Of a DNA stretch of 57,724 nucleotides, positions 1-57,724 are shown piece after piece. Location: NCBI GenBank assembly GCA_040753835.1, contig JBFMDM010000002.1:1-57724 (forward strand). Direction: 5' to 3'. Source of the DNA: Planctomycetota bacterium. GTDB taxonomy: Bacteria; Planctomycetota; MHYJ01; JACQXL01. Below the pieces are notes generated by a model, which saw only the letters and a program-made list of their open reading frames with translations, searched no databases and was not told the origin of the DNA. Position 1 is the first letter of the stretch. The number at the start of each line of letters is the position of its first letter. Position numbers and translations under genes: made by a program.

Positions 1-271
1 TAAACCTGTAACGATTGCTTACTTGCTCACTGGCTGATAGGGATTCGCCGAAAGCGGAATAGTCATAAGTGTTAACCACAGATTGCGCAGATGACACGAG
101 ATTGCGCACGCTTCCTAAGCCGTCAACCATAAAGTAATACGTATTGGAATTGGTGATGACCAGAAGGTTCTGGTCTAAGAACGGCGTTACATACGAGGCA
201 ATCAGGTTATTGGAGCCGTCATAGTCCGTAACCACGGTCGGGCCGTCATAGGCGCAACATCTATTTTTCAT
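1..271 (-). CDS. RHS repeat-associated core domain protein, 5-prime part only (continues past the window start)
   Basis: Minus-strand ORF absent from the supplied track because it leaves the window. ATG at 271-269 follows an in-frame TGA. Translation: MKNRCCAYDGPTVVTDYDGSNNLIASYV...YYFMVDGLGSVRNLVSSAQSVVNTYDYSAFGESLSASEQVSNRYRF. It matches the conserved N-terminal halves of the ORFs at 54212 and 55837. Nucleotides 1-49 are the exact reverse complement of 55993-56041. Confidence 0.7.
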   Translation of the reverse strand, partial: MKNRCCAYDGPTVVTDYDGSNNLIASYVTPFLDQNLLVITNSNTYYFMVDGLGSVRNLVSSAQSVVNTYDYSAFGESLSASEQVSNRYRF

Positions 272-1691
272 TCGGTTTGGTTTCTGGTGGAGTTTTCTCT
301 TTCAATTCTTCTATATATTGCTGGACTAATTCAGTTCTAATCGATTTTGGCTCTAATTCTAAATAATGTGTAAAATCCTTTATTGCCTCTTGCTTCTTAC
401 CTAATTTCTTATAAATTAACCCCCTAAAATAATATGCTTCGGAATATTTGGGATTTAATTGAATTGTCAATGTTAATTCTTTTATAGCATTGTCGTTGTC
501 GCTCTTATAAAACAATAATTTGGCGCGTCTAAGATGACATCTATCAGATGACGGAAATAATTTTATAGCTCGGTCAATATCTTTAATTGCGTTATCATAT
601 TCATTTATTTTTTCATAGATAACCGCTCTGCGATAATAAATTCTTGCCAATGAAGGATTCAACTCTATTGCTTTACTGTATACTGAAAGAGCAGATTTCA
701 GTTCTTCCCTTGCATCATAAGTATATCCTGTTGAGTTTATCAAATATCCCTTTAGTTCATACGAACCATAATAATTCGGGGACATTCGTATTACCTCATT
801 CAAATGGAATAACGCCCTATTATATGCTCCATCTGTACCAACCCCAGCCAAAAAAGAAGCGATTTCAAAGTGGGTATGCGCAGGGTTTGAAGAGACCTTA
901 ATTGCTTTTCTCCAATCACTATCAGATTTACTATCATCATAGTTATCGTAATACACCATCCCCCTATTCATGAGAAAGATTCCTATAACATCTTTCTTTG
1001 AAAGATTCTTAAGATATCCAGCAAAGTTTATGTCCTCTTTTGTTAACCCGATAAAAAACATTTGATTATCAGGGTTATTCATACCCGGCGCTAAATAATA
1101 ATCATAAGCCGACGTTCCTAATTCGGCGCCATTTTTATCGGTTTCTATGTCTCTTATATATTTACCATTATCATACCTAATAAATATATGTTCGGGAGAG
1201 GACACTCCATATACAGGCAGGTTTAATCTTTCTGCAAGGGCAAGATAAAGAGATGATAAACCCAAGCAATTTCCCGACTTATTATCCAACACCTTATTTA
1301 ATAATGCTTTTTCAGCATAATTCTCCCTCGGCTTCCAGTAAATAGTCGGGGATGCCTTAAACCCTTTAACGTCAAAAAGGTAGCTATTAATCGTTCGGAT
1401 AACATCAGACGGTTCTTTCTGGGCGCTAATCTGGTCTTCTATCTCCCTTGCCATGTTATCCAAGATATCAAGGTATTTTTTCACATCTATAGATGGATAA
1501 TACTCCTTCGCCAGGATTAAGAGCACGCATCCTAAATCGATATTTTTATCCGCAGAACTTATAACATCCTCGATTATTTCTCCCTCATTTCTATTTATCC
1601 ATTTGTTATAATTTTGCGACTCTTGTTCACAAATACCACCGACACCCGACATAATTACTAAAATCAGGAATAGAATATAAGTAATTTTCAT
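261..1691 (-). CDS. secreted transglutaminase-like / TPR repeat protein
   Basis: 476-aa ORF with a hydrophobic N-terminus (MKITYILFLILVIMSGVGG). SGNCLGLSSLYLALAERLNLPVYGVSSPEHIFIRY resembles the Cys/His core of transglutaminase-like cysteine-protease folds. The C-terminal third has 34-residue TPR-like units (ARIYYRRAVIYEKINEYDNAIKDIDRAIKLFP; AYYFRGLIYKKLGKKQEAIKDFTHYLELEP). The stop overlaps the start of the RHS-core ORF by 11 nt. Confidence 0.75.
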   Translation of the reverse strand: MKITYILFLILVIMSGVGGICEQESQNYNKWINRNEGEIIEDVISSADKNIDLGCVLLILAKEYYPSIDVKKYLDILDNMAREIEDQISAQKEPSDVIRTINSYLFDVKGFKASPTIYWKPRENYAEKALLNKVLDNKSGNCLGLSSLYLALAERLNLPVYGVSSPEHIFIRYDNGKYIRDIETDKNGAELGTSAYDYYLAPGMNNPDNQMFFIGLTKEDINFAGYLKNLSKKDVIGIFLMNRGMVYYDNYDDSKSDSDWRKAIKVSSNPAHTHFEIASFLAGVGTDGAYNRALFHLNEVIRMSPNYYGSYELKGYLINSTGYTYDAREELKSALSVYSKAIELNPSLARIYYRRAVIYEKINEYDNAIKDIDRAIKLFPSSDRCHLRRAKLLFYKSDNDNAIKELTLTIQLNPKYSEAYYFRGLIYKKLGKKQEAIKDFTHYLELEPKSIRTELVQQYIEELKEKTPPETKPNEK

Positions 1692-1946: not shown

Positions 1947-2012
1947 CCCGCCAAAGGCGGGTCCGCCTCCCGCCATTAGGGCGAGGCTCGCCTTCGGGCG
2001 GCTGGCGGAAAA
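1947..2012. repeat. GC-rich nested palindromic element (intergenic copy of the double-hairpin family)
   Basis: CCCGCC-aaa-GGCGGG followed by TCCGCC-tc[ccgccattagggcgaggctcgccttcgggcgg]ct-GGCGGAAAA. The outer arms match the 33-nt element found inside ileS and the M42 peptidase. The inner part matches 5253-5289 and 50933-50957. Confidence 0.7.
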
Positions 2013-2047: not shown

Positions 2048-3103
2048 TCAGTTTATCCGGTAGCGGTTTATCCCGGAATCGGCCAGGACCGGCACATTGC
2101 GCAGAACTGTTTTATCAGATAGTATGTTTGTCGTTACATCCTTAACGCCATCCGGCAGGTCTGCATAGCGGGCCGTGATGCCTGCGGCAAGTTTAATGTC
2201 CTCATCGCGGAATCTGCCCCGTAATAGCGCCGTGGGTCCGACATAGTCCGCGGTTTCCATCAGGACGTCTCCTTCGCGGCCATCCGCCGTTTCGTAGCCG
2301 GAGCTCTGGAATGGCGAAGGACGGCACAGGTTGGCAATGGTCTGGTTTTCCTTTTCATTGCGTCCCACTATGAGTTTGAGTTTGTCGTTTATCCTGAAAT
2401 GCCGGCCTACCTGCAATAACAGGGTGTCGTTCAGCCCAAAGTCCGGAGTATATTTCAGGAGGTCCTTCATCCGCACCGCAAATCCGGGGTCGGTGAGTAA
2501 ACATCCGCCGGCCGGACAGGGATAGTCCTTAATCTCAAAGATATTGGCAAGGGACATCTGCTCTTTGCGCGAGCGGCCTGAGATGGCCAGCAATTTGGCC
2601 CGGTCCACCCACTTGTTATTTTCCGGCACGGTCGGCTCCAGCAGCCGGGCCGAGAGCGGCCGCAGGATGAGGCCTTGCAATCCGGTCTCTTTCTCAATAA
2701 GTTTCAGGGCGTTCAGATGCTGGGACATCGGCCGCTGGCTCAGGACCTCGCCGGTAATAATAAAAGACGCGCCGGACCGGTTCATCACCTCGCGGGTTGA
2801 ACGAACCGTATTTATCCGGCAGTCAATGCAGGGGTTAACGTTGCTGCCGTAGCCGTACCGGGGCTTGCGCACCGCTTCCAGCATCAGGTTGGTGTTGTTG
2901 ATGTTTCTTATCGGAATATGAAATTTTTCGGCTACGCTTTTGGCCGTGGAGCCGCAGACGCTGTCTTTGCCGTCGCACCGGCAGAAGACCGTGGTGAAGT
3001 GCAGAGCCTCTATCTCAAGAGGTACCAGGGCGGATTCCTGCACCACCTTGATGGCCAGGGTTGAGTCCAGCCCGCCGGATAACAATGCCAATGCTTTCAC
3101 CAT
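2048..3103 (-). CDS. PP-loop (adenine nucleotide alpha-hydrolase) family ATPase, ThiI/MnmA-like tRNA sulfurtransferase-type
   Basis: 351-aa ORF. N-terminal SGGLDS PP-loop motif (ALALLSGGLDSTLAIKVV), Cys-rich segments (CRCDG, NPCIDCR) and PCPAGGCLLTD. The exact substrate cannot be assigned. Confidence 0.6.
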   Translation of the reverse strand: MVKALALLSGGLDSTLAIKVVQESALVPLEIEALHFTTVFCRCDGKDSVCGSTAKSVAEKFHIPIRNINNTNLMLEAVRKPRYGYGSNVNPCIDCRINTVRSTREVMNRSGASFIITGEVLSQRPMSQHLNALKLIEKETGLQGLILRPLSARLLEPTVPENNKWVDRAKLLAISGRSRKEQMSLANIFEIKDYPCPAGGCLLTDPGFAVRMKDLLKYTPDFGLNDTLLLQVGRHFRINDKLKLIVGRNEKENQTIANLCRPSPFQSSGYETADGREGDVLMETADYVGPTALLRGRFRDEDIKLAAGITARYADLPDGVKDVTTNILSDKTVLRNVPVLADSGINRYRIN

Positions 3104-8009: not shown

Positions 8010-10907
8010 ATGCCAAATGAAAAAACCCGTCTGACCGAGTCATCCGGACAGGCCGACTACCAGAAGACGTTGAACCTGCCTGAGACGGATTTCTCAATGA
8101 AGGCGGACCTGACCAAGAAGGAGCCGATAATCCGCGGTCAGTGGGAGAAACTTGACCTCTACCACGAAATCCTGAAGAAGAATCATAGCAAGCCCAAATA
8201 TATTTTACACGACGGGCCACCTTACGCCAACGGCAACGTCCATATCGGCACGGCCCTGAACAAAATCCTCAAGGACATCGTGGTCAAGTTCAAGACAATG
8301 CAGGGTTTTTACTCGCCTTATATCCCGGGCTGGGACTGCCACGGACTGCCCATTGAACATAAGGTCACCAACGAACTCGGGCCCAAGGCCAAAACCGCTT
8401 CCAAGACCGAAATCAGGCAGGCCTGCGAGAAATACGCCCGTAACTATATTGATATCCAGCGCAAACAGTTCCAAGCCCTGGGCGTATTCGGCGACTGGTA
8501 TAATCCGTACCTGACCCTGAATCCCTCTTACGAGGCCGGCATCATTGAGGTCTTCCGTGACCTGGTTAAGAATGGTTATATCTACCGCAAACTCCGGCCC
8601 ATCCACTGGTGTATGCACTGCGAGACCGTGTTGGCCGAGGCCGAGCTGGAATACTCGGACGAGACCGGCCCGTCTATCTATGTCAAATTCCCGCTCACCG
8701 ACGCGCAACAAGAAGAGCTGGCTAAACGAGTTAAAACTCCGCATTCCACACTCCGCACTCCGCACTCGTTTTTTATCTGGACCACCACGCCCTGGACGCT
8801 TCCGGCCAATGTGGCCGTGGCCCTGAACCCGGCATTTGAATACGCTCTGGTCCAGACCGACACAGATATCCTGATTATGGCCTCAGGCCTGGTGGAAAAA
8901 GTCATGGCGCTAATCGGAATAACCGATTACAAGATTCTGGCCAAGGTCAAGGGCTCTGCCCTGGCAGGCCTGCATTATAATCATCCCTTTGTTTCCGCCG
9001 AAGGCGGATCCGCCTCTGGCGGAAAACCACGCATCTGCCAGGTCATCCTGGCCGATTATGTCAGTTTAGAGGACGGCACAGGCATCGTGCACATCGCGCC
9101 CGGGCACGGCGTTGAGGACTACGAAAGCGGACTGAAATACAACCTACCGGTCATCAGCCCGGTGGATAAATCCGGCCGGTTCACGCCGGAGGCCGGCGTA
9201 TTCCCGGGCGAGCGCGTATTCGACGCGGACCCGAAAATCTGCCAGATGCTCGCCGAGCAGAAACTGCTCCTTAAGAAGGTGGACGTGGTCCACTCGTATC
9301 CGCACTGCTGGCGCTGTAAAAAGCCGCTCATTTTCCGGGCCACCGAGCAGTGGTTCATCTCCGTGGACAACCACTCGGCCCGGCAGAAAGCAATAGAGGA
9401 AGTAAAGAAAACGCGCTGGGTGCCCGAATGGGGCAAGAGCCGGACCGCGGCAATGCTTGAATCCCGGCCCGACTGGTGCGTCTCGCGCCAGCGTAACTGG
9501 GGCGTGCCCATCCCCATCTTCTACTGCGCCAAGTGCAACCAGTCGCTCCTGGACGTCAAGGCCATAGACCACGTGCGCGAGATATTTTCTAAAGAAGGCG
9601 CCAATGCCTGGTTCATCAGGCCCACCGCCGAACTGGTTCCCGCGGGCACCAAATGCAAATGCGGCTCAACCGAATTTTCTAAGGAGAACGACATATTTGA
9701 CGTCTGGTTTGAATCCGGCTCGTCATTCCGCTCGGTTGTCATAGAAAACAAGGACCTGCACTTCCCGGCGGACTTATATCTGGAGGGCTCGGACCAGCCG
9801 GCGAGGTGGTTCCAGTTGTCGCTCCTGCCCTCGGTAATGACGCGCGGGGTCGCGCCATTTAAGAACGTCCTGATTCACGGATTCGTCAAGCGTCCCGAAG
9901 GCGAGAAACTCTCCAAGTCCAAGGGCGCGATGACCTCGGACGAGATGGTCAGCAAGGTCGGCGCTGACATCATCCGGCTCTGGATTTCATCCATCAACTT
10001 CACCGAGGACATCCCGATTTCCCTGGAAATCCTGCAGGAAAAGGCCGACCCGTATCGCAAGATTCGCAATACCTTCAGGTATATGCTGGGTAATCTTTAT
10101 GATTTCAACCCGGCCGAGGACGCGGTCAAACACGACAAGATGCCGGAGATAGACCGCTGGGCCCTGAATAAAGTCCAACGTTTGGTGCGCGACCTGACCC
10201 GGTATTACGAGGATTTTGAGTTCTACAAGGTATTCCGCGACTTCTACGAATTCTGCGTGGTGGAAATGAGTTCGTTCTATTTTGACATCCTCAAGGACCG
10301 GCTTTATACGTTCGGCCGGAACTCGCCCGAACGCCGGTCCGCCCAGACCGCCTTGAATGAAATACTCCATACGATGGTAAAACTTATTGCGCCCGTTCTC
10401 TCCTATACAGCCGAGGAAATCTGGGATAATATCATTTTCGCCAATTCCAAATTCGGCAATCGGCAACCCGCGTTCGTGCGCAGCGTCCACCTGCTGGACT
10501 GGCCCAAGGTGGATGAGGCCTGGATTGACAACCGCCTTGAGGAGAACTGGAAGAAGATATTCCTGATTCGCTCCGAGGTAACCAGAGAGATAGAAAACCT
10601 GCGCAAGGAAGGCCAGATCGGCTCGTCTATTGAAGCCGACGCCGTACTCTATACCGAAGGGGCAGACCTGCTGGAATTCCTGAAGATATACGAAAAAGAC
10701 CTTGCCACCATCCTAAAGGTCTCGTCTGTCAGGGTGGTCAGGAAACCGGCCCGGAAACCCGCGGAGCAAATGCAAATGGGCGTGGAGATAACCAAATCGC
10801 CGCACCAGAAATGCGCCCGGTGCTGGAATTATATGGTGGATGTTGGCAGGGACAAGAACCATCCGACCCTCTGCGGACGTTGCGTTACCATCGTCAGCGC
10901 GATGTAA
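8010..10907 (+). CDS. ileS: isoleucine--tRNA ligase
   Basis: 965 aa. HIGH-type motif (PPYANGNVHIGTALN), KMSKS-type motif (KLSKSKG), and a C-terminal Cys4 zinc module (CARCWNY...CGRC). Carries two in-frame repeat insertions (see findings). Confidence 0.95.
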   Translation: MPNEKTRLTESSGQADYQKTLNLPETDFSMKADLTKKEPIIRGQWEKLDLYHEILKKNHSKPKYILHDGPPYANGNVHIGTALNKILKDIVVKFKTMQGFYSPYIPGWDCHGLPIEHKVTNELGPKAKTASKTEIRQACEKYARNYIDIQRKQFQALGVFGDWYNPYLTLNPSYEAGIIEVFRDLVKNGYIYRKLRPIHWCMHCETVLAEAELEYSDETGPSIYVKFPLTDAQQEELAKRVKTPHSTLRTPHSFFIWTTTPWTLPANVAVALNPAFEYALVQTDTDILIMASGLVEKVMALIGITDYKILAKVKGSALAGLHYNHPFVSAEGGSASGGKPRICQVILADYVSLEDGTGIVHIAPGHGVEDYESGLKYNLPVISPVDKSGRFTPEAGVFPGERVFDADPKICQMLAEQKLLLKKVDVVHSYPHCWRCKKPLIFRATEQWFISVDNHSARQKAIEEVKKTRWVPEWGKSRTAAMLESRPDWCVSRQRNWGVPIPIFYCAKCNQSLLDVKAIDHVREIFSKEGANAWFIRPTAELVPAGTKCKCGSTEFSKENDIFDVWFESGSSFRSVVIENKDLHFPADLYLEGSDQPARWFQLSLLPSVMTRGVAPFKNVLIHGFVKRPEGEKLSKSKGAMTSDEMVSKVGADIIRLWISSINFTEDIPISLEILQEKADPYRKIRNTFRYMLGNLYDFNPAEDAVKHDKMPEIDRWALNKVQRLVRDLTRYYEDFEFYKVFRDFYEFCVVEMSSFYFDILKDRLYTFGRNSPERRSAQTALNEILHTMVKLIAPVLSYTAEEIWDNIIFANSKFGNRQPAFVRSVHLLDWPKVDEAWIDNRLEENWKKIFLIRSEVTREIENLRKEGQIGSSIEADAVLYTEGADLLEFLKIYEKDLATILKVSSVRVVRKPARKPAEQMQMGVEITKSPHQKCARCWNYMVDVGRDKNHPTLCGRCVTIVSAM

Positions 10908-23549: not shown

Positions 23550-24659
23550 GTGAATAAAGAAACCGTAGAGATGCTCAAACGTCTAACCGACGCCAACGGC
23601 GTGCCTGGTTACGAATCAGAAGTGGCGGAGGTAATCCGGAGGGAGTTGACCGGCCTTGTTTCATTCTCCTACGACAAACTGGGTAGCATCGTCTGCGAGA
23701 AAAAGGGCTCAAGCCCTTCGCCCAAAATAATGCTCCCCGGCCACATGGACGAGGTCGGCTTTATGGTCACCCGCATTACCGAAGACGGATTCATCAAGTT
23801 CACGATGTTAGGCGGCTGGTTACCGCAGTATATGCTGGCGCAGAGAGTGGTCGTCAAAACCAGCAAGGGCGACATCCCGGGCATCATCGGCGCCAAGCCC
23901 ATCCACATTATGACCGAAGAGGAGCGCAAGAAGGTGCCGGACAAGAAAGACCTATTTATTGACATCGGCGCCAGGGACGAAAAGGATGCGGCCAGAATCG
24001 GCGTCCGGCCCGGCGACCCGATTATCCCGGTCGCGCCTTTTACCCAAATGGCCAATCCTGATTATCTCCTGGCCAAGGCCTGGGACGACCGGCTTGGCTG
24101 CGCCCTGTTCATTGACGTAATCAAGAACCTCTCCGCCAAAGGCGGATCAGCCTCCGGTGGAAAGGGCAGAAAACATCCCAATACGGTCTACGGCGTGGGC
24201 ACGGTCCAGGAAGAGGTGGGCACGCGCGGCGCGCACACCTCGGTGCGCAAAATTAATCCGGACGTGGCCCTGGTCTGCGAGGTCGGCATTGCCCAGGACG
24301 TGCCGGGCGGCGAGAAGAATGCCGGCGTATTGGGCAAGGGGCCGCAGATTACCATCTACGACCGCGGGATGATACCCAATCTGGCCCTGCGCGACTTCAT
24401 TATGGACACGGCCGAAAAACACAAGATACCATACCAGATACAATCAATGGAAGGCGGGATGACAGACGGCGGCCCGATTCACCTCAGCGCCGAGGGCGTG
24501 CCCTGTATTTATTTAGGCGTCCCGACCCGGTATATCCACTGCCATTCGGGCATCATCCACAAGCAGGACTATGACAATACCGTGCGCTTGATTACCGAGG
24601 TGGTCTTAAAACTGGACGCCAAGACCGTGAATGGCTTTACCCCGCGCATAAAAGATTAG
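23550..24659 (+). CDS. M42-family aminopeptidase (FrvX/YpdE-like)
   Basis: 369 aa, GTG start. Motifs: LPGHMDEVGFMV, AWDDRLGC, TVQEEVGTRGA, HCHSG. Contains an in-frame copy of the GC-rich double hairpin. Confidence 0.8.
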   Translation: MNKETVEMLKRLTDANGVPGYESEVAEVIRRELTGLVSFSYDKLGSIVCEKKGSSPSPKIMLPGHMDEVGFMVTRITEDGFIKFTMLGGWLPQYMLAQRVVVKTSKGDIPGIIGAKPIHIMTEEERKKVPDKKDLFIDIGARDEKDAARIGVRPGDPIIPVAPFTQMANPDYLLAKAWDDRLGCALFIDVIKNLSAKGGSASGGKGRKHPNTVYGVGTVQEEVGTRGAHTSVRKINPDVALVCEVGIAQDVPGGEKNAGVLGKGPQITIYDRGMIPNLALRDFIMDTAEKHKIPYQIQSMEGGMTDGGPIHLSAEGVPCIYLGVPTRYIHCHSGIIHKQDYDNTVRLITEVVLKLDAKTVNGFTPRIKD

Positions 24660-26043: not shown

Positions 26044-26101
26044 TCCCGCAGTTCTGCGGGATCTAAAAGCCAGTAACGACCAAAGGTCTAACTGGCTCTA
26101 A
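26044..26101. repeat. TAAC-hairpin element, copy A
   Basis: TCCCGCAG-ttc-CTGCGGGA followed by AAGCCAG-TAAC-GACC-aaa-GGTC-TAA-CTGGCTCT. Confidence 0.8.
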
Positions 26102-26103
26102 GA

Positions 26104-26418
26104 GGGGATAGGGTGGGGTCTATGGGGGGTGGGGGTGGGGTCTGGTATGCCTGACCGACCAAACGGGTGGTGGTTTAAGGCAAATCTGATGGACATAACC
26201 GCCCAGACCAGTAGACCTGTCTGATAGGACTGGCGGGCCTCTCCGACCAGATGGACAGGGGATGGCGACCTTACCGGAAGGGGCTGGCGCCGAGACCGGG
26301 GGACTTACCCGACCACACGGGTGGGTCTGTCCGACCATACGAGTGGGAGCTTACGCCGAGATTAGGAGGGATGACCGACCATATCGGTAGGTGGTGCGGC
26401 CGATACCCGGAGGAATTT
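26104..26418 (+). repeat. G-rich degenerate array of about 22-bp iteron-like repeats
   Basis: Eight contiguous units start at 26243, 26265, 26288, 26308, 26331, 26354, 26375 and 26397 (consensus CCGACCAnAnnGGnnGGG + 4-6 nt). Outliers sit at 26155 and 26199. GGGTGGGGTCT occurs twice (26111, 26133) within long G-runs. The 20-24-bp period is not a multiple of 3. Confidence 0.75.
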
Positions 26419-32230: not shown

Positions 32231-32471
32231 AATTACTTGAGTGGTCGGGGAGTTTTTTTGCACCCTCGTTAGGACCCTGTCATTCCTGCCCCTGCTTTCG
32301 CAGTGGTAAACTTGTCCCCGCGTAGGCGGGGAGCAGGAATCCAGCCGTTTCCGGGTCTACTGGATTTCCGTTTTCACGGGAATGACAAATGGGCGGGAAT
32401 ACACTTTTGCTTATAATCGCCATTTTAACCAATAAAATCAAGGGTTATATTCCCCGACCCCTCAATTACTT
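32231..32471. mobile_element. MITE-like element with terminal inverted repeats
   Basis: TTGAGTGGTCGGGGA (32237-32251) and its near-perfect complement TCCCCGACCCCTCAA (32451-32465), 14/15. The interior carries GTCATTCC...GGAATGAC-type palindromes. There is no ORF. Confidence 0.4.
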
Positions 32472-39126: not shown

Positions 39127-39161
39127 TGTAGCACACAGTAGGCGTTTACCGCCCGCTCCTT

Positions 39162-39216
39162 AGAACCTGTTAGACCTTTGGTCTTACAGGTTCTTAAATC
39201 CCGCCTTCGGCGGGAT
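39162..39216 (-). repeat. TAAC-type hairpin element (rpsJ-rplC spacer), consensus orientation on the minus strand
   Basis: The minus strand reads ATCCCGCC-gaag-GGCGGGAT-tta-AGAACCTG-TAA-GACC-aaa-GGTC-TAA-CAGGTTCT. The architecture matches copies A-E, with compensatory changes in the outer stem. Confidence 0.75.
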
Positions 39217-40740: not shown

Positions 40741-41697
40741 CTACTGTTTTTTCCTGGCAAAGGCCTTCTTGGCCGCCTTGATGATGTCTTCGCTGGTGAG
40801 GCGGTATTCCTTCATTAGTTCATCCGGCTCGCCGGACTGGCCGAAGCGGTCCTTGATGGCCACCATCTCCAGGGGCGCGGGGCAATTGGCCGCCAGGATA
40901 TCGGCCACTGCGCTGCCCAGGCCGCCGGTTGCCAGGTGTTCCTCTGCCGTGACGATGGCGCCGGTCTTTTTGGCGTAGGAGATAATCCGCTCCTCGTCCA
41001 GGGGTTTGATACTGTAGGCATTGATGACCGTTGCTTTGATGCCTTCCTTGATGAGCGTCTCGGCCGCATTCAGGGCCGGAGCGACCATCACTCCGCAGGC
41101 GATGATAGTTGCATCCGCGCCTTCCTTGAGGACATTGAATTTGCCGATGACGAATGAGTCGGTGAGTTGGGTGATGATGGGAATCTTGAGCCGGGCCAGG
41201 CGTACGTAGACCGGACCTTTGTATTCAGAGGCGGCAAAGAGCGCCTTGGGCGTTTCCACGGCATCACACGGAACCAGCACCGTCATTCCCGGAATCATCC
41301 GCATTAGCGCGATGTCCTCAATGCCCTGGTGCGAGGCACCGTCCGGACCGACCGAGATGCCTCCGTGCGTGGCTATAATCTTCACATTGAGATTGCCATA
41401 GGCAATGGTGTTGCGAATCTGCTCCCAAGCCCGGCCTGAGGCGAAGATGGCGAATGTCGTGGCAAAGGGAATCTTGCCTGCCGCGGCCAGCCCGGCCGCG
41501 GTGTTCATCATATTGGCCTCGGCGATTCCCATATTGAAGAATCGCTCTGGGAACACCTTGCCGAAATCCTCGGCCTTGGTTGAGCCGGCCAGGTCGGCTG
41601 AGAGGACCACGATGTCCTTATTGGCTCTGCCCAGTTCCACCAGGGCATTGCCGCAGGCCTCACGGGTGCATTTTAATTCTGGCATAATAACCACCAA
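40741..41697 (-). CDS. transketolase, C-terminal (pyrimidine-binding) subunit
   Basis: 318 aa. Motifs: FNMGIAEANMMNTAAGLA, THGGISVGPDGASHQ. Confidence 0.9.
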   Translation of the reverse strand: MVVIMPELKCTREACGNALVELGRANKDIVVLSADLAGSTKAEDFGKVFPERFFNMGIAEANMMNTAAGLAAAGKIPFATTFAIFASGRAWEQIRNTIAYGNLNVKIIATHGGISVGPDGASHQGIEDIALMRMIPGMTVLVPCDAVETPKALFAASEYKGPVYVRLARLKIPIITQLTDSFVIGKFNVLKEGADATIIACGVMVAPALNAAETLIKEGIKATVINAYSIKPLDEERIISYAKKTGAIVTAEEHLATGGLGSAVADILAANCPAPLEMVAIKDRFGQSGEPDELMKEYRLTSEDIIKAAKKAFARKKQ

Positions 41698-41699
41698 GT

Positions 41700-41766
41700 G
41701 TCATTCCCGCGAAAGCGGGAATCCATTAATTTAAGGTCGTAGATTCCGCATCAAGTGCGGAATGAC
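41700..41766. repeat. pair of GTCATTCC-type palindromes in the transketolase subunit spacer
   Basis: GTCATTCCCGC-gaaa-GCGGGAAT (41700-41722) and ATTCCGCA-tcaag-TGCGGAATGAC (41743-41766). Related GTCATTCC/GGAATGAC arms occur at 32279-32390. Confidence 0.7.
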
Positions 41767-42868: not shown

Positions 42869-42926
42869 AGTCCCGCCTTCGGCGGGATTAAGAGCCAGTA
42901 ACGACATTTGGTCTAACTGGCTCTAA
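42869..42926. repeat. TAAC-hairpin element, copy D (abuts the tRNA-Phe 3-prime end)
   Basis: GTCCCGCC-ttcg-GGCGGGAT-t-AAGAGCCAG-TAAC-GAC-attt-GGTC-TAA-CTGGCTCTAA. Confidence 0.8.
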
Positions 42927-42927
42927 G

Positions 42928-42999
42928 TGGGCAGGGCCGGGGTCGAACCGGCGACACGTGGATTTTCAGTCCACTGCTCTACCACTGAGCTACCTACCC
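42928..42999 (-). tRNA. tRNA-Phe (GAA)
   Basis: Minus strand: GGGTAGG TA GCTC AGTGGTA GAGC A GTGGA CTGAAAA TCCAC GTGTC GCCGG TTCGACC CCGGC CCTGCCC A. This gives a full cloverleaf with anticodon loop CU-GAA-AA. CCA is not encoded. Confidence 0.9.
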
Positions 43000-48070: not shown

Positions 48071-49399
48071 TTAACGCCGGCGGAATCCGGACCCTGACGG
48101 CATAAACGGGTTGGCGGTCGCCGCCTCCTGCTTGCTTATCGTGCCGGTCACTACTTCCTGGCCTTCCTTGATATCGCCGTTTAATATCTCGGTAAAAGAG
48201 CCGTCCGTAATGCCGGTTCTGACGCTGACCGGCTTAAGTTTTCCGTTATTTAATATCCAGACCTGTTTCCGGGACGGCGTCTCTGTTTTATCCTTCCCGT
48301 TCGGCTTTGCCTCAGGATAAGAGCCAGTAACGACCTGCGGTCTAACTGGCTCTAATGGTTTCCGGCCCGTTCCCGGCTGGTGTGCTGGAGCGCCTGATAC
48401 GGCTTCCCGTTCCCGGCCTTCGGGCGCCTCCGCGGCCTTGTATTTATCAGCATCCTGGGGCACAAAGCGTAGGGCCGCATTGGGCACCCGCAGGACATCT
48501 TCGCGGCGCTCTATCTCAAACGAGAGATTGGCCGTCATCCCGGGCAGGAGTTTTTCCTCCGGATTGTCCGCATAGATAATCACCGTATAGGTCACCACGT
48601 TCTGGACCGTTGTGGGCGATAGCCGGATTTGCGCCACCCGGCCGCTGAACTTCTTTTCCGGATGGGCGTCCACCGTGAAATTGACCATCTGGTCCATCAG
48701 AATCTTGCCGATGTCCGCCTCGGCCACGCTGGCCTGTATCTGGATTTTGTTGAGGTTGTTGGCAATTATGAACAGGGTCGGGGCCGAGAGCGAGGCGGCC
48801 ACGGTCTGGCCCTCGTCCACGTTGCGCGAGACCACAATGCCATCTATCGGCGATTTGATGGTGGTATAGGCCAGGTTTATCTCCGACATCTTCAGGGACG
48901 CCTGGGACTGCTCGATACCGGCCTTGGCCAGTTTCAACTGGGCAATCAGCGAATCAAATGACGCCACCGCCGTGTCCAATTCTGATTGCGATATGAGGTC
49001 TTTCTTAGCCAGTTCCTGGGCCCGCTTGAATTCGTTCTCGGCCTGGGTGAGATTCGCTTCCACCCGCTCGGCATCGGCGATGCTGCGCGCCAGACTGGCC
49101 CGGTCTTGGGCGACCCGCGCCTCGTAGGACGCCGGGTCTATCTGGGCGATGATGTCGCCTTCCTTGACCCGAGAATTGAAATCCACGTATAACTTCTTGA
49201 CAGGCCCGGTTACCTGCGTGCCGACCTGGACCTGGAGCAGGGGCTGGACCACGCCGCTGGAAGTAACGGTCTTGATAACCGTGCCCTTGTCCGCCTTGGC
49301 GGTCTTATAGGATACCGCGCCGTTGGCGCCTCCGCCTAGGGTAAAATACAGGACCGCGGCCGCGGCCAGGACCGCAATCACGACGATAATCTTTTTCAT
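48071..49399 (-). CDS. efflux periplasmic adaptor protein (HlyD/MacA family)
   Basis: 442 aa. N-terminal TM, a coiled-coil hairpin (ARVAQDRASLARSIADAERVEANLTQAENEFKRAQEL...), beta-barrel segments, and a low-complexity linker containing repeat copy E. Confidence 0.88.
   Translation of the reverse strand: MKKIIVVIAVLAAAAVLYFTLGGGANGAVSYKTAKADKGTVIKTVTSSGVVQPLLQVQVGTQVTGPVKKLYVDFNSRVKEGDIIAQIDPASYEARVAQDRASLARSIADAERVEANLTQAENEFKRAQELAKKDLISQSELDTAVASFDSLIAQLKLAKAGIEQSQASLKMSEINLAYTTIKSPIDGIVVSRNVDEGQTVAASLSAPTLFIIANNLNKIQIQASVAEADIGKILMDQMVNFTVDAHPEKKFSGRVAQIRLSPTTVQNVVTYTVIIYADNPEEKLLPGMTANLSFEIERREDVLRVPNAALRFVPQDADKYKAAEAPEGREREAVSGAPAHQPGTGRKPLEPVRPQVVTGSYPEAKPNGKDKTETPSRKQVWILNNGKLKPVSVRTGITDGSFTEILNGDIKEGQEVVTGTISKQEAATANPFMPSGSGFRRR
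48315..48355. repeat. TAAC-hairpin element, copy E, inside the MacA-like coding sequence
   Basis: GGAT-AAGAGCCAG-TAAC-GACC-tgc-GGTC-TAA-CTGGCTCTAA. It is translated on the minus strand as ...LEPVRPQVVTGSYP.... Confidence 0.8.
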
Positions 49400-51098: not shown

Positions 51099-52985
51099 AT
51101 GAATAACTTGATTCCCTACGCCAGGGGCGCAAAACCGGTTGACCTCCTGCTCAAGAACTGCCGCATGGTCAATGTCCTCACCGCAGAGATATACAAGACC
51201 TCTGTGGCTATTGCAGAAGGATTCGTGGTCGGATTCGGCACCTATAAATCCGAAAAGGTCATAGACCTTAAGGGCGCGTATCTGGCGCCCGGATTTATAG
51301 AGGGCCATATCCATATAGAAAGCAGTATGCTCTCGCCTGCGGAATTCTCCAATACCGTTCTGCCCCGCGGCACGACTACTGTGGTCTGCGACCCGCACGA
51401 GATTGCCAATGTCCTGGGTCTTAAAGGCATTAAATATTTCCTGGATGCCAACCTGCCAGAACGCCTCGCAATGGGGCAGGCGGGCCGCTACCCCGGGCTG
51501 AGCATCTACACAATGCTGCCTTCCTGTGTTCCGGCAACTGATTTAGAAACCTCAGGCGCCCGGCTCACAGCCCGCGACCTGCTTAAATTAGCCCGCCACC
51601 CGTATGTGCTCGGACTGGCCGAGATGATGAATTTCCCGGGCGTGCTTTACGAGAATAAAGACGTCCTGGCTAAACTAAAAATATTTGATATGACAGCGGA
51701 CGGCTTGCCGTTCCGTAGTCCCACTGGGACGAAGGATGGCCTGCCGTTCCGTAGTCCTACTGGGACGAAGGACGGCTTGCCGTTCCGTAGTCCTACTGGG
51801 ACGAAGGACGGCCTGCCGTTCCGTAGTCCTACTGGGACGAAGGACGGGCATGCGCCGGGATTGAGAGGAAAAGATTTATCCGCCTATATCTCTGCCGGCA
51901 TCCGCTCGGACCACGAGTCGTTCACGGTTGAAGAGGCATTGGAAAAACTCCGGAGCGGGATGCACCTGATGCTCCGCGAGGGCACAGCCGCCCGGAATCT
52001 GGAGACGCTCATCAAGGCGGTCACGCCCGGCAACAGCCGCAGGTGTATGCTGGTCAGCGACGACCGGCATCCGGACGACCTGCTCAAGAACGGGCATCTG
52101 GACGCCGCCTTAAGAAAGGCGGTGCGGCTGGGATTGGACCCGATAACCGCGCTCCAGATGGTTACGATTAATCCGGCAGAATATTTCGGGCTGAAGCGCT
52201 TAGGCGCCATTGCGCCCGGATTTGCTGCCGACCTGGTTGTCCTGCAAGACCTCAGGGACTTTAAGATAAAGATAGTGTTTAAGAAGGGAACGAGCATAAG
52301 GCATAGAGCAAAGAGTTTAGGTGGTCATTCTAATAACGCTCTACGCTTTACGCTCTACGCTTCGCTTCATCTGCCTCTGCTGACAGAGAGTGATTTCCAT
52401 ATCCGTTCATCAGGCCATAGAATGATAAAGGTCATAGAACTTATACCGAACCAAATAGTAACCAAAAAGACGATTCTGCCGGCGCTGATAAAAGACGGCC
52501 GGGCCGTGGCCGACACGAAACGCGACATCCTGAAGATTGCGGTCATAGACAGACACAGCGGCAAGAAGCACATCGGACTTGGATTCGTAAAGGGATTCGG
52601 CTTAAAGAGAGGCGCGATTGCATCCACCGTGGCGCACGACTCGCACAACCTGATTGTGGTCGGGACAAGCGATTGGGATATGCATTTTGCAGCAAAGGTC
52701 ATCCGGTATCTCAGGGGCGGCCAGATTGTGGTTTCATACGGCAGGATTATGGCATCTTTGCCTTTGCCTAATGCCGGGATAATGTCCGACCGGAGCGCGC
52801 AAGAGGTGGCAGAAGCGGTCCGCAAACTAAATCTTGAGGCGCGCAAACTGGGGTGCAGGGTATCCGAACCCTTTATGCCGCTCTCATTCCTGGCCCTGCC
52901 GGTTATCCCGGACTTGAAGATTACGGACAAGGGTCTGGTGGATGTGACTCAATTCCGGGTCGTGGGATTGTTTGAGCGTTCATAG
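51099..52985 (+). CDS. ade: adenine deaminase
   Basis: 628 aa. Motifs: PGFIEGHIHIESSML, VVCDPHEIANV, DGHAPGLRGKDLSAYISAGIRSDHE, LVSDDRHPDDL. Carries in-frame tandem-repeat insertions. Confidence 0.9.
   Translation: MNNLIPYARGAKPVDLLLKNCRMVNVLTAEIYKTSVAIAEGFVVGFGTYKSEKVIDLKGAYLAPGFIEGHIHIESSMLSPAEFSNTVLPRGTTTVVCDPHEIANVLGLKGIKYFLDANLPERLAMGQAGRYPGLSIYTMLPSCVPATDLETSGARLTARDLLKLARHPYVLGLAEMMNFPGVLYENKDVLAKLKIFDMTADGLPFRSPTGTKDGLPFRSPTGTKDGLPFRSPTGTKDGLPFRSPTGTKDGHAPGLRGKDLSAYISAGIRSDHESFTVEEALEKLRSGMHLMLREGTAARNLETLIKAVTPGNSRRCMLVSDDRHPDDLLKNGHLDAALRKAVRLGLDPITALQMVTINPAEYFGLKRLGAIAPGFAADLVVLQDLRDFKIKIVFKKGTSIRHRAKSLGGHSNNALRFTLYASLHLPLLTESDFHIRSSGHRMIKVIELIPNQIVTKKTILPALIKDGRAVADTKRDILKIAVIDRHSGKKHIGLGFVKGFGLKRGAIASTVAHDSHNLIVVGTSDWDMHFAAKVIRYLRGGQIVVSYGRIMASLPLPNAGIMSDRSAQEVAEAVRKLNLEARKLGCRVSEPFMPLSFLALPVIPDLKITDKGLVDVTQFRVVGLFERS
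51699..51842 (+). repeat. 4 x 36-bp perfect-phase tandem repeat inside ade
   Basis: The unit GACGGC(T/C)TGCCGTTCCGTAGTCC(C/T)ACTGGGACGAAG occurs at 51699, 51735, 51771 and 51807. It encodes (DGLPFRSPTGTK)x4, immediately followed by the native DGHAPG. Confidence 0.95.
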
Positions 52986-53499: not shown

Positions 53500-54096
53500 A
53501 TGCTCAAGAAACTAATTTTCTGGAAGATAACAACCATTTTTTTGCTTATTAGCACGCTAATTATGGGACTAATTATTGTCTGGCCAGAACCAGATGGATA
53601 TTCGCGAGTTCCCCGTATCATATCTATAGTAAGACTTATGGGGCTCAATCAAGAATCAATTAAGAAGGAAGTGCTAATTGATAAAAATAATAATGGTGTT
53701 GGAGAATATTCAGACAACATTAATTATATGCTTGAAACTAAATACTTAACTAAGGATATTAATAATAGCATTGATTATTCTCATTATAATTATATGGTAA
53801 AAGTAGGTGAAAGTGTTGAGGAAAGAGAAAAATCTTTTGAGATATACGCCATTCCTAAGGTGCCTTATAATTACTGTGATAAATACGGAGATGGAATAGT
53901 TGCTTGTGCTATTGACGAAACTGGGGTTATGAAATTTTCGGTAATGGAAAATGCAGTAAATTGGGACCCACCAATTGGTATAATGAAGAAATGGCAACCC
54001 TTAAGTAGTGACTGCTGGGGAGAACAATTAAAAAAACATTTTAGCATATCATTAACAGAAAAAATATTAAATAAAATATTTCATGGTCATTATTAA
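53500..54096 (+). CDS. membrane-anchored hypothetical protein
   Basis: 198 aa, AT-rich. GGAGAAGGA RBS. N-terminal TM helix WKITTIFLLISTLIMGLIIVW. The C-terminal FEIYAIPKV...GDGIVACAIDETGVM is loosely pseudopilin-like. Confidence 0.6.
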   Translation: MLKKLIFWKITTIFLLISTLIMGLIIVWPEPDGYSRVPRIISIVRLMGLNQESIKKEVLIDKNNNGVGEYSDNINYMLETKYLTKDINNSIDYSHYNYMVKVGESVEEREKSFEIYAIPKVPYNYCDKYGDGIVACAIDETGVMKFSVMENAVNWDPPIGIMKKWQPLSSDCWGEQLKKHFSISLTEKILNKIFHGHY

Positions 54097-54103
54097 AAGG
54101 GGG

Positions 54104-54520
54104 TTCGGGGGACAGCCCCGCTATCCAGCGGGACTCCGCGGCGGCTCCGCATACCGGATTTGAATAAGTAATTATTGCGCTATCGGGTTTTGGAGATTAT
54201 AATCAATTCTGATGATAGCCCTTAAGCCAATTAAGAAACACAATTCACCGACTACTGTCTACAGTCCACTGCCTGCTTCCCACTATATCCAGGACGGCTT
54301 GGGAAGTATCCGCAATCTCGTGTCATCTGCGGAGGCAGTGGTTAACTCGTATGATTATTACGGTTTTGGCGAATCCCTATCAGCCAGTGAGCAAGTGAGC
54401 AATCGTTACAGGTTTACCGGCCGGGAGTGGGACAACGAATCCAGCACCTACCGCTACCGGGCCAGGGAGTATAATCCGGCCAGCGGAAGATTTACGGCCA
54501 GAGACCCGATTGGGTATTTA
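54104..54520 (+). repeat. RHS cassette junction repeat, copy 1
   Basis: About 417 bp nearly identical and collinear (constant offset of 1625 nt) with 55729-56145. It covers 108 nt upstream of the ATG plus the first 100 or so codons. Confidence 0.9.
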
Positions 54521-55267
54521 GGCGGAATAAACATTTACTCATATTGTGGAAGCAACCCGGTTAACTGGATAGACCCCTCGGGCTGGGTGGCCAGATGGCC
54601 GGATGATGTCGGAGGCGAGGCAACAGACCTGTTATATAGAGTAAAAAGAGACCCGTGGGGTCGGCCAATAAATGACGAACCTGCTGGCGCAGATTTGTTG
54701 CATAGAGTAAAAAGAGACCCGTGGGGTCGTCCAATACCTGATTCTGAATCACAGGTGGAATTGATGGGGTTTAAAGAGTCGGTTGATTTCCTCCAGACAG
54801 AATGTGATGTTATTGGATTAATACCAGCAGTGGGAGAACCCTTTGATGCAGCGAGCGGAATAATTTCTGTATTTAAAGGAGATTGGATCGGTGCAGGTTT
54901 GTCTGCTCTTGCGTTAATACCTACCGGTGGCCAGTATTTTGGAGGCCTTAAACTTGTCAGAAAGGGCAAGAAAATTCTTGGAAAAGCAGATGATGTTGCC
55001 GATGCGACAAAAGTGGGCAAAAATGCGCCGCCAACGCCAAAGGCAGATACGCCAACTACAAAAGCACCGAAAATACCCGATGGAAGTAAAGATGTAAATG
55101 ACCTTAAGAGAGTAAGCGACCAAGAATTAAGAGATGCAGGGATTGACGCACATAAAATTAAAACAGGTAAAGGCACTGATCTTTATAAGGATAAAGATGG
55201 TAACCTTTATGAGGTTCCTAAGGGTGGAAGAGTAGGGGAGCCGACAGGTACGTCTCTCCCTAAATGA
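54212..55267 (+). CDS. orphan RHS-core / C-terminal polymorphic-toxin protein 1
   Basis: 351 aa. Residues 1-124 are the end of an RHS core (YRFTGREWDNESSTYRYRAREYNPASGRFTARDPIGYLGGINIYSYCGSNPVNWIDPSG). A unique 228-aa C-terminal region follows, with a PT-TG-like segment (AVGEPFDAASGIISVFKGDWIGAGLSALALIPTGG). Confidence 0.8.
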   Translation: MIALKPIKKHNSPTTVYSPLPASHYIQDGLGSIRNLVSSAEAVVNSYDYYGFGESLSASEQVSNRYRFTGREWDNESSTYRYRAREYNPASGRFTARDPIGYLGGINIYSYCGSNPVNWIDPSGWVARWPDDVGGEATDLLYRVKRDPWGRPINDEPAGADLLHRVKRDPWGRPIPDSESQVELMGFKESVDFLQTECDVIGLIPAVGEPFDAASGIISVFKGDWIGAGLSALALIPTGGQYFGGLKLVRKGKKILGKADDVADATKVGKNAPPTPKADTPTTKAPKIPDGSKDVNDLKRVSDQELRDAGIDAHKIKTGKGTDLYKDKDGNLYEVPKGGRVGEPTGTSLPK

Positions 55268-55282
55268 GAAAGAGATTTAAAT

Positions 55283-55723
55283 ATGGCTGGTAAGTTTTAT
55301 ATTGAGTTTAGCTTTAGAGGTGACGATTTTTCTCCTGAAGAAATAACAACATCTCTCGGTATTACCCCATCAAGGACATGGAAAAAAGGAGACAGGAGAA
55401 CCCCTAAAAATGCGAATACAAAAGTAGTATGCAAAAATAATGGATGGGTTATTAGAACCGAGGAAAAAACGGACGAAAACAATAACATGGAAGAACAAAT
55501 AGAACTTTTACTTGCGAGGTTAACACCACTTGCGTATAAAATAAAAGAAATTTGTTCTAATAATAAAAAAATAGAGGCCATATTTTGCTGTGTTTTATAT
55601 GCTATAGAAGCCAATCCGCAAGTTTATTTTAAATCTATGATAGTTAGGCAAATATCAGATATGGGTGCGTCTATTTGGTTTGATGTATATAATTTCGGGG
55701 ACGACATACCAAACTCAAAATAA
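55283..55723 (+). CDS. candidate immunity protein (DUF4279-like)
   Basis: 146 aa, 15 nt downstream of toxin 1. FYIEFSFRGDDFSPEEITTSLGITPSRTWKKGD resembles my recollection of the DUF4279 N-terminal signature. Confidence 0.55.
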   Translation: MAGKFYIEFSFRGDDFSPEEITTSLGITPSRTWKKGDRRTPKNANTKVVCKNNGWVIRTEEKTDENNNMEEQIELLLARLTPLAYKIKEICSNNKKIEAIFCCVLYAIEANPQVYFKSMIVRQISDMGASIWFDVYNFGDDIPNSK

Positions 55724-55728
55724 CGGAA

Positions 55729-56145
55729 TTCGGGGGACAGCCCCGCTATCCAGCGGGACTCCGCGGCGGCTCCGCATACCGGATTTGAATAAGTAATTAT
55801 TGCGCTATCGGGTTTTGGAGATTATAATCAATTCTGATGATAGCCCTTAAGCCAATTAAGAAACACAATTTACCGACTGCTGTCTATAGTCCACTGCCTG
55901 CTTCCCACTACATCCAGGACGGCTTGGGAAGTATCCGTAATCTCGTGTCATCTGCGCAATCTGTGGTTAACTCGTATGATTATTGCGGTTTTGGCGAATC
56001 CCTATCAGCCAGTGAGCAAGTAAGCAATCGTTACAGGTTTACCGGCCGGGAGTGGGACAACGAATCCAGCACCTACCACTACCGGGCCAGGCAGTATAAT
56101 CCGGCCAGCGGAAGATTTACGGCCAGAGACCCGATTGGGTATTTA
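55729..56145 (+). repeat. RHS cassette junction repeat, copy 2
   Basis: See copy 1. Also contains the segment whose reverse complement is found at 1-120. Confidence 0.9.
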
Positions 56146-57592: not shown

Positions 57593-57636
57593 AGTCGGTC
57601 CGGTGACACCCACCTCGCCTCAGTGGTGAATTGGAA

Positions 57637-57724
57637 TTCGGGGGACAGCCCCGCTATCCAGCGGGACTCCGCGGCGGCTCCGCATACTGGATTCAAATAA
57701 GTAATTCTTGCTTCACTGGATTAT
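57637..57724 (+). repeat. RHS cassette junction repeat, copy 3 (truncated by window end)
   Basis: TTCGGGGGACAGCCCCGCTATCCAGCGGGACTCCGCGGCGGCTCCGCATA... is identical to the heads of copies 1 and 2, then diverges moderately. This implies a further cassette beyond the window. Confidence 0.85.

Follow-up and report, generated by a model that had tools for sequence, protein, structure and literature searches.

How does a Gly/Ser/Ala-rich decapeptide come to stand within an enzyme whose relatives lack it? The question is raised by a stretch of 57,724 nt (57.7 kb, hereafter the window) from a Planctomycetota bacterium (contig JBFMDM010000002.1 of assembly GCA_040753835.1). In this window, the first-pass annotation had pointed to a double hairpin lying in frame inside the gene of an M42 family metallo-aminopeptidase, and had related it to a similar one in ileS, the gene of isoleucyl-tRNA synthetase (IleRS). 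The comparisons reported here lead to the conclusion that this segment is probably a copy of a very small (30 bp), non-autonomous and mobile palindromic repeat element, akin to repetitive extragenic palindromes (REP) and to Rickettsia palindromic elements (RPE), its mobility being read from comparative patterns only.

The segment in the M42 gene

The host gene is the open reading frame (ORF) 23550..24659 (+), whose product has 369 aa vs. 355 aa in relatives and finds its closest solved relative in PDB 1vhe (phmmer vs. PDB, E = 8e-118). The 32-mer TCCGCCAAAGGCGGATCAGCCTCCGGTGGAAA was confirmed at 24132-24163 (+), in frame 0 of this ORF (24132 minus 23550 is a multiple of 3), and the peptide context is the one given by the first-pass annotation (...VIKNLSAKGGSASGGKGRKHPNTVYGVGTVQEEVG). 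The last 2 bases of this interval belong to the native Lys codon AAG (24162-24164); the element itself covers 30 nt (24132..24161, +) and encodes in frame SAKGGSASGG, i.e., residues 195-204 by codon count. It is composed of two hairpin units. Unit 1 (24132..24146, +; TCCGCC AAA GGCGGA) is intact, with a perfect 6-bp stem and a 3-nt loop. Unit 2 (24147..24161, +; TCAGCC TCC GGTGGA) is decayed: it departs from the family consensus at 24149 (C>A) and 24158 (C>T), which leaves 4 Watson-Crick pairs, one G.T pair and one A.G mismatch. Folded as single-stranded DNA, the M42 copy forms hairpin 1 only, and the 44-nt region is not more stable than its shuffles (z = −1.7). The native Leu codon CTC (24129-24131) precedes the segment and the native Lys codon follows it, the right junction (24159..24164, +) being of the target type TY|AA.

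The segment was inserted and is not a conserved feature of M42 peptidases: (i) solved M42 structures (PDB 1vhe, 5ds0) show a clean 10-residue gap exactly at SAKGGSASGG; (ii) it is absent in 26/26 closest M42 homologs of a 5.8-billion-protein collection, including Planctomycete proteins from metagenome-assembled genomes (MAGs) that are 88-90% identical, and these homologs read ...IKAL-KGKKHPNT...; (iii) nucleotide alignment with the sister genomes L121/L122 (85% identity) and L123/L124 (82%) gives exactly 30 extra nt in the window, with unambiguous boundaries and no target-site duplication, the empty sites being CTC|AAG (L121) and CTT|AAA (L123). The occurrence of a Gly/Ser segment in M42 peptidases generally, which the first-pass annotation had named as fatal to its proposal, is thus contradicted by the gap seen in even the nearest of these homologs. 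Synteny around the gene is conserved in the sister genomes (dnaA-dnaN-dciA-gyrB-mog-M42). The alignments indicate that the insertion occurred in this lineage after its split from the nearest sequenced relatives. In the same protein collection, the M42 and IleRS proteins of the window each form a single-member 90% cluster.

Both stem substitutions of the M42 copy (C24149A and C24158T) are synonymous third-position changes. They represent 2/8 synonymous stem sites, while fourfold divergence from the nearest relative is 31%, i.e., ~15% per lineage; such values would fit neutral drift since roughly the split from that relative. In the AlphaFold2 model of the protein (mean pLDDT 86), the insert lies in the loop that links helix 181-195 to strand 212-218; no other segment of the model than residues 198-205 has pLDDT < 50. 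The insert is therefore predicted to sit in a disordered surface loop, and for that reason its drift looks neutral rather than protein-constrained. The first-pass annotation had read the lost complementarity of the second hairpin as drift of an old insertion under protein-level constraint: the decay is indeed observed, at a rate that looks neutral. We infer that the M42 copy is old and now immobile, its second hairpin eroding by neutral synonymous substitutions. Since the insert is a disordered surface loop, its effect on the M42 gene itself is probably nil.

It must be noticed that another M42 homolog (P0006, 372 aa) has in its N-terminal region a different lineage-specific insert of 17 residues, SDSVSTRTQPKARRSEL, bounded by the direct repeat ELSDSV. 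Either an insertion that duplicated its target or a purely local duplication could account for it.

The ileS copy and the third copy of the window

The gene ileS (8010..10907, +; 965 aa) contains a perfect copy of the element at 8994..9023 (+), TCCGCC GAA GGCGGA TCCGCC TCT GGCGGA, encoding SAEGGSASGG between native GTT (Val) and AAA (Lys). Over 32 nt (8994-9025) it is 88% identical to the M42 copy (28/32 matches), ~5e-4 such matches being expected by chance between two sites in 57.7 kb. Moreover, the single-hairpin pattern TCCGCCNNNGGCGGA with at most 1 mismatch occurs 4 times in the window vs. 0.30 expected, a count reached by 0/100 shuffles. The similarity of the two copies is not due to chance, and the view that both are the same element was well founded. 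The ileS copy folds with z = −4.4 relative to shuffles. Its insertion is likewise exactly 30 nt, between GTT|AAA and with no duplicated bases; PDB IleRS structures have an 11-residue gap there, and 17/18 close IleRS homologs are without the insert and show F-V/I|K-(E)-R in its place.

One relative (P0123; locus L139, 10973-11002) has the same ileS insert as the window with one difference, its loop 2 being CCT. In a neighbour-joining tree the window is basal; 200/200 bootstraps nest P0123 among sequences that lack the insert, and 0/200 make it the sister of the window. Judged from these sequences, the occupancy pattern would need two gains at one site, at least 4 losses, or lateral transfer. 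A more distant IleRS (P0133; L141 5751-8690) has at residues ~712-720, i.e., at a different IleRS site, the segment F|SAEPSGSGG|N. The DNA of this insert, TCCGCCGAA-CCCAGTGGG-TCTGGCGGA, joins the 9-nt termini of the element to another palindromic centre, also of 9 nt, and represents a decayed copy or else a sister family.

The window contains three related copies: the perfect one of ileS, that of M42 and an intergenic composite (1947..2009, no strand assigned), located between ORFs 261..1691(−) (transglutaminase-like/TPR) and 2048..3103(−) (ThiI/NFACT-R). The composite starts with the variant hairpin CCCGCC AAA GGCGGG (1947-1961); a 32-nt palindromic insert (1970-2001) is nested in its second unit, between the arms TCCGCC (1962-1967) and GGCGGA (2004-2009). 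The composite is predicted to fold into hairpins nested in one another (dG −26.5 kcal/mol, z = −4.4). A terminator was considered for this copy and rejected, as it is not terminator-like. The element has no match in Rfam, a tRNA being the only match of the window. A search of ~167 kb from this Planctomycete clade, with up to 6 stem mismatches allowed, gave only the 3 window copies and the L139 ileS copy; the density is 3 in the 57.7-kb window and 1 in ~110 kb of sister loci.

Occurrence of the family in other genomes

The pattern TCCGCCNNNGGCGGATCCGCCNNNGGCGGA, with 24 fixed bases and identical to its own reverse complement, was used for an exact-match scan of the GTDB one-genome-per-species representatives. 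The census gives lower bounds: at least 120 stretches with at least 126 perfect copies in at least 107 assemblies, all of them MAGs, whereas ~0.002 would be expected by chance (596 Gb / 4^24). By record titles and among the matches listed, 63 loci belong to Patescibacteria/candidate phyla radiation (CPR), 10 to Omnitrophota, 12 to the Planctomycetes-Verrucomicrobia-Chlamydiae (PVC) group (as Planctomycetes, Kiritimatiellae, Verrucomicrobiota and Lentisphaerae), 4 to Ignavibacteria and 2 to Chloroflexota, with several further groups represented by single loci; 11 loci are titled uncultured Gammaproteobacteria, an unverified label. Each MAG contains 1-4 perfect copies among the matches listed. 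Several copies lie on contigs of 0.3-1.6 Mb, therefore mis-binning cannot explain the spread. No match was obtained in 72,556 PLSDB plasmids, 50,697 INPHARED phages and 5,426 complete E. coli genomes, and IMG/VR gave only 2.

The centre of the element, GGCGGATCCGCC, resembles synthetic GGS-type linker DNA, and with hosts that are all MAGs one may think of an artefact of assembly, sequencing or contamination, e.g., a synthetic linker with a BamHI site. Such an origin has practically no chance of being correct: many independent projects and assemblers have yielded copies, some of them on long-read contigs above 1 Mb; the copies occupy precise in-frame positions in otherwise colinear essential genes; and they show lineage-specific synonymous decay as well as vertical sharing with variation (the CCT loop of P0123).

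Among the controls, the permuted stem TCGCCC..GGGCGA gave 0 matches in IMG/VR and 12 in the metagenome collection, this control being confounded since it contains the core GCGATCGC of the cyanobacterial highly iterated palindrome (HIP1). A second control (TGCCGC..) gave 0 matches in IMG/VR. The 12 matches, vs. ~0.01 expected, are double hairpins of the same architecture around the HIP1 palindrome (TCGCCCnnnGGGCGATCGCCCnnnGGGCGA) on metagenome contigs L127-L138 (GC 34-47%); one of them, in L131, is read in frame 0 within an ORF of 968 codons. These matches point to a broader class of «palindrome of palindromes» elements.

Architecture and target site

The consensus TCCGCC-RRA-GGCGGA·TCCGCC-TYY-GGCGGA is a near-perfect 30-bp palindrome made of two inverted 15-nt stem-loop units. 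On either strand the loop on the 5' side reads R-R-A (94% of copies have A as its third base), so that the consensus reads alike on both strands. For this reason an apparent orientation bias (K/E in loop 1 and S in loop 2 in the coding sense) vanishes and was discarded. Perfect 30-bp palindromes represent 24/124 copies among the matches listed, vs. 1.6% expected. Folded to minimum energy, an intact copy gives a single long hairpin. Nevertheless, compensatory double changes among 10 variant copies (e.g., TTCGCC/GGCGAA, CCCGCC/GGCGGG and CCCTCC/GGAGGG) number 5 under a structure of two adjacent hairpins and 0 under the nested one; in this small sample of 10, covariation would favour the two adjacent hairpins over the long one.

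The flanks are T-rich upstream and A-rich downstream (consensus TTT / AAA): T is found at −3 in 58%, at −2 in 81% and at −1 in 61% of copies, and T or C at −1 in 82%. Both empty sites of the clade already have TY|AA, thus these flanks reflect a target preference and are not part of the element. Some non-coding copies stand at the apex of pre-existing palindromes (L035, L075, L114 and L120), and nested copies, inside the loop of another copy, occur in L026 and in the window (1947-2009).

Could the element arise anew at each site by local mutation, i.e., by slippage, template switching at quasi-palindromes or fold-back repair? The lack of target-site duplication, the preference for centres of small palindromes or TT|AA dyads and the occupancy of one ileS site in two non-sister lineages would agree with it. 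However, the flanks hold no template for TCCGCC/GGCGGA, the same 24 fixed bases recur in at least 107 genomes and loops are shared within genomes, so that this origin is very improbable. The idea of a DNA-uptake sequence was also dismissed: those sequences arise by substitution at ~1 per kb, whereas here 30-nt insertions are found at no more than 1 per 20 kb.

A Kiritimatiellae MAG (STD1_155) has a larger, ~200-nt repeat with the element at its 5' edge (L002, L005 with two copies, and L050); this repeat also holds hairpins of the GTCATTCCGAGCG...CGCTCAGGATGAC type; in L002 a GIY-YIG ORF lies ~300 nt downstream.

Reading frame and host proteins

Contexts could be classified for 100 copies among the matches listed, 68 being coding and 32 non-coding. 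Frame 0, which gives S-A-x-G-G-S-A-x-G-G, is used in 59 of the 68 confidently coding contexts. Under the stricter rule that the element lies at least 60 codons inside an ORF, frames 0, 1 and 2 are used 43, 2 and 2 times (n = 47, other genomes), while target-site availability predicts 38-59% of frame 0 (P <= 1e-6 for 43/47). Target availability accounts for the scarcity of frame 1, since T|RA there would have been a stop codon. Most of the apparent frame-1 and frame-2 cases either stand ahead of the real start codon or belong to ORFs that are themselves dubious. The other frames would encode F-R-R-R-R-I-R-L-W-R-K or F-P-P-E-A-D-P-P-L-A-E, and the consensus is free of stop codons in all six frames. 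Loop 2 encodes Ser in 38/58 coding copies, whereas TTY predominates in non-coding ones.

Other hosts are RpoB, RpoC, DnaE, ValRS, PheT (two copies) and HsdR; the copies of RpoB, RpoC, DnaE, ValRS, PheT, M42 and IleRS are all in frame 0. In RpoB and ValRS alignments the insert falls in variable loops. PheT of L015 has SARGGSAFGG near its N-terminus and SAGGGSASGG at residue 356. In a 1679-codon repeat protein of Planctomycetia (L090), a perfect copy is accompanied by another that departs by a single mismatch (SAVSGSASGG) and by a further one whose CCCGCC/GGCGGG unit is compensatory.

The first-pass annotation proposed that the element repeatedly lands or survives in the same translational phase. 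The common phase is borne out by the 43/47 copies in frame 0, and of the two verbs «survives» fits better than «lands». Retained genic copies would then be those tolerated by selection, filtered by frame. Tolerability may come from three properties: a length that is a multiple of three, the lack of stop codons in six frames and a flexible, hydrophilic loop in frame 0.

A surface loop and a strong preference for frame 0 are also what would be expected if the decapeptide were an adaptive Gly/Ser/Ala linker gained convergently, its nucleotide likeness being a by-product of codon usage. On the contrary, no close ortholog has the insert, its hosts are proteins unrelated to one another, about a quarter of the copies are non-coding (among the matches listed), perfect palindromes occur, and the codons are GC-rich even in AT-rich genomes with AT-rich flanks. 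This explanation, less credible still than local mutation at each site, is effectively refuted.

Spread and mode of movement

Copies of the same assembly resemble each other: identical loop pairs are found in 11/24 same-assembly copy pairs vs. 4.9% between assemblies (permutation P < 0.0002). Some same-assembly copies ride on larger repeats, and 7 genomes share loops at otherwise unrelated sites. As far as sequence comparison can tell, the family has spread at low copy number through the genomes of many phyla of uncultivated bacteria, the copies within a genome being related.

The element may spread as selfish DNA moved in trans, the visible copies being those that are tolerated. Its hairpins are probably the feature recognised by the mobilising machinery, and movement could be a single-strand, hairpin-guided transposition by a trans-acting HUH/Y1 enzyme, like those of the insertion sequences IS200/IS605 or the REP-associated tyrosine transposases (RAYT). 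Such an enzyme fits better than a cut-and-paste DDE transposase, since no duplication is left, the ends are precise, a T-rich base stands directly 5' on either strand and stems change in a compensatory way. An autonomous parent bounded by single hairpins was looked for and none was found in 0.9 Mb of host loci, where most «solo» hairpins are half of a variant doublet. GIY-YIG genes stand near 2/32 non-coding copies, too few to mean anything.

Several observations speak against a mobile repeat of this kind. There is no transposase or nuclease gene in the 57.7-kb window, and no gene family recurs near the 32 non-coding copies (at most 2/141 ORFs in 8-kb loci). The copy number per genome looks low, unlike that of typical REP or MITE (miniature inverted-repeat transposable element) families; the census counts exact matches only. 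Identity of the 30-mer across phyla is hard to square with simple vertical selfish spread. The terminal GTAG/CGTC tag of REP and REPIN (REP doublets forming hairpins) is absent from this element: GTAG, CTAC, CGTC and GACG are found in the 8-nt flanks of 1-4/125 copies vs. ~5 by chance. Finally, between the window and P0123 the fourfold sites of ileS are 36% different, yet the stems have changed at 0/8 third positions (P = 0.03). Such conservation, which a «junk» model does not predict, hints that the ileS stems are constrained or have a function at the DNA/RNA level.

The ileS stems, with all 24 bases kept in two lineages, thus lead to consider a functional DNA/RNA signal kept by selection: a protein-binding or recombination site with a 12-6-12 architecture around GGATCC, a restriction/methylation palindrome like HIP1, or an mRNA structure, the coding copies being co-opted or positively retained. 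The compensatory stem changes, the strong sequence conservation across phyla and the analogous HIP1-centred double hairpin of cyanobacteria-like contigs go in the same direction. However, the M42 copy decays at the neutral rate; the copies lie in unrelated genes and intergenic DNA, without positional logic and at low density; orthologs work without the insert; and the element is neither terminator-like nor matched in Rfam. Such a signal is, on balance, unlikely, although it deserves more credit than the other explanations set against a mobile repeat.

Returning to the mobile repeat, a bolder formulation can be put forward, of which we are distinctly less confident and which we hold to be rather doubtful. 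The element would be an undescribed pan-phylum mobile element, possibly the smallest self-defined bacterial transposable unit (30 bp), moving horizontally among co-occurring uncultivated lineages (CPR, Omnitrophota, PVC and Ignavibacteria) and mobilised in trans by a hairpin-recognising enzyme, with hairpins intact in «live» copies. Core proteins (RNA polymerase, DNA polymerase III, tRNA synthetases) would repeatedly have their surface loops remodelled by it, and the ileS site would have been hit anew in separate lineages. No bacterial description of the element was found in the literature searched.

If the family is truly mobile, (i) in-frame palindromic insertion, known from the RPEs of Rickettsia and from occasional REPs within genes, also exists in CPR and further uncultivated lineages, with an element five times smaller than RPEs and a sequence apparently suited to harmlessness in any frame; (ii) the 24 fixed bases offer a searchable marker of horizontal DNA flow between very distant co-habiting lineages, which could lead to the moving enzyme via phylogenetic profiling; (iii) a class of Gly/Ser/Ala-rich loops in MAG-encoded housekeeping proteins, which can mislead alignment, orthology calls and structure prediction, is explained.

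Other repeats and gene context of the window

In the adenine deaminase gene (ORF 51099..52985), four tandem 36-nt units GGACGGCTTGCCGTTCCGTAGTCCCACTGGGACGAA are found in frame at 51698-51841. Each unit consists of two short hairpins, and the array encodes (DGLPFRSPTGTK)x4; the solved homolog 3nqb is without ~45 residues there. This array is a second in-frame hairpin-repeat insertion in the window, unrelated to the 30-nt element. A further dispersed hairpin repeat is an inverted pair of the GTCATTCCCGCGAAAGCGGGAATCC type (32358-32392 and 41694-41728 among the positions), and another dispersed family of ~43 nt (GCCAGTAACGACCnnnGGTCTAACTGGCTC) occupies intergenic spots, the positions listed being 26064-26106, 42889-42931, 48318-48360 and 39159-39183. 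The source genome is generally rich in small palindromic repeats.

A repeat of ~75-300 nt precedes successive paralogous genes (54087-54178, 55712-55803 and 57620-57711), with an inverted copy at the window start (1-135). One of the genes behind it (54212..55267) ends in an Ntox33 toxin domain. The whole looks like a polymorphic-toxin cassette array with conserved leader sequences.

Past the M42 gene, the window (25043-53000) was compared with L121/L123. It continues with a Bro-N protein, TPR proteins, a ribosomal-protein operon, a tRNA-Phe (42927-42999, minus strand) and an efflux pump, whereas the sisters continue with DUF5684 (L121) or DUF4234 (L123) and then leuS. A rearrangement breakpoint is located directly downstream of M42. 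A prophage or island at 25-53 kb, suspected from the differing sister neighbourhood, was ruled out by the ribosomal-protein operon, a transketolase and the efflux pump.

Comparison with known systems

RPEs are palindromic repeats inserted in frame in unrelated housekeeping genes, where they add a tolerated peptide; they are also intergenic, and they have no associated transposase (PMC10969869, PMC3733652). The present element shares this habit, being found in frame in housekeeping genes that are unrelated to one another and whose products tolerate the extra peptide. It differs from them in size and distribution: RPEs have ~100-150 bp, a conserved peptide of 30-50 aa per family and a CGTC tag and are restricted to Rickettsia, whereas this element has 30 bp, no tag and many host phyla.

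REPs and REPINs measure 20-40 bp and consist of GC-rich stem-loops (stem 5-13 bp, loop short), often arranged as inverted (head-to-head) dimers; complementary changes in the stems distinguish their subfamilies, some copies are intragenic, and there is no target duplication (PMC3733652). The short GC-rich stem-loop dimer (15-nt units in a 30-bp inverted dimer) and its compensatory changes are common to both. REPs go with a RAYT gene; within the 57.7-kb window no such gene was found, and among the 141 ORFs around the 32 non-coding copies no family recurs. On the contrary, REPs are mainly extragenic and present in high copy, while here copy number is low and 68/100 contexts are coding among the matches listed. 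Moreover, the two units of this element abut with zero spacer, and its sequence is common across phyla, whereas REP families are lineage-specific.

MITEs have target-site duplications, whereas the filled-vs.-empty alignments of M42 and ileS show exactly 30 nt added. They are ~50-500 bp long and bear the terminal inverted repeats of an autonomous insertion sequence; here the length is 30 bp and the whole element is the inverted repeat, and no longer element bounded by the same termini was found in 0.9 Mb of host loci. The likeness to IS200/IS605, including the miniature palindrome-associated transposable elements (PATE), lies in the putative mechanism and does not imply membership: these have hairpin-defined ends and insert 3' of a short motif with precise junctions and no duplication. 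In the element, hairpins are present, no duplication is seen and T-rich bases stand 5' on both strands (T at −2 in 81%); the motif is loose, however, and a palindromic body does not tell the two strands apart. IS200/IS605 elements have distinct left- and right-end hairpins plus guide sequences and at least 100 bp, vs. 30 bp here, and no TnpA gene was found in the window.

Like the element, HIP1 of cyanobacteria is a short GC-rich palindrome with GATC, over-represented genome-wide, coding DNA included, and the HIP1-centred double hairpins, which come from the confounded control, share the A-n3-A'A-n3-A' architecture. HIP1 itself has 8 bp, is extremely abundant and arises mainly by substitution or biased repair, unlike the insertion of a 30-bp block. 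The properties of an intrinsic terminator or of an Rfam RNA family are not those of the element.

Two adjacent short GC-rich hairpins forming one dispersed unit are also known from mitochondria. The GC clusters and double-hairpin elements of yeast, Allomyces and other fungi are short GC-rich palindromes with one or two adjacent hairpins, mobile in AT-rich genomes, intergenic, occasionally in frame in protein genes and strain-optional (Paquin et al. 2000; var1 GC-cluster literature). They are organellar and have other sequences, and those of yeast show specific AT-rich target duplications, so that the likeness to the bacterial element is architectural only. In the literature searched, no bacterial counterpart of double-hairpin elements was found, the term being used only in organelle papers. 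The element is classified as a new variant of small-palindromic-repeat elements, set apart by the lack of a GTAG/CGTC tag, insertion without duplication and occurrence across phyla.

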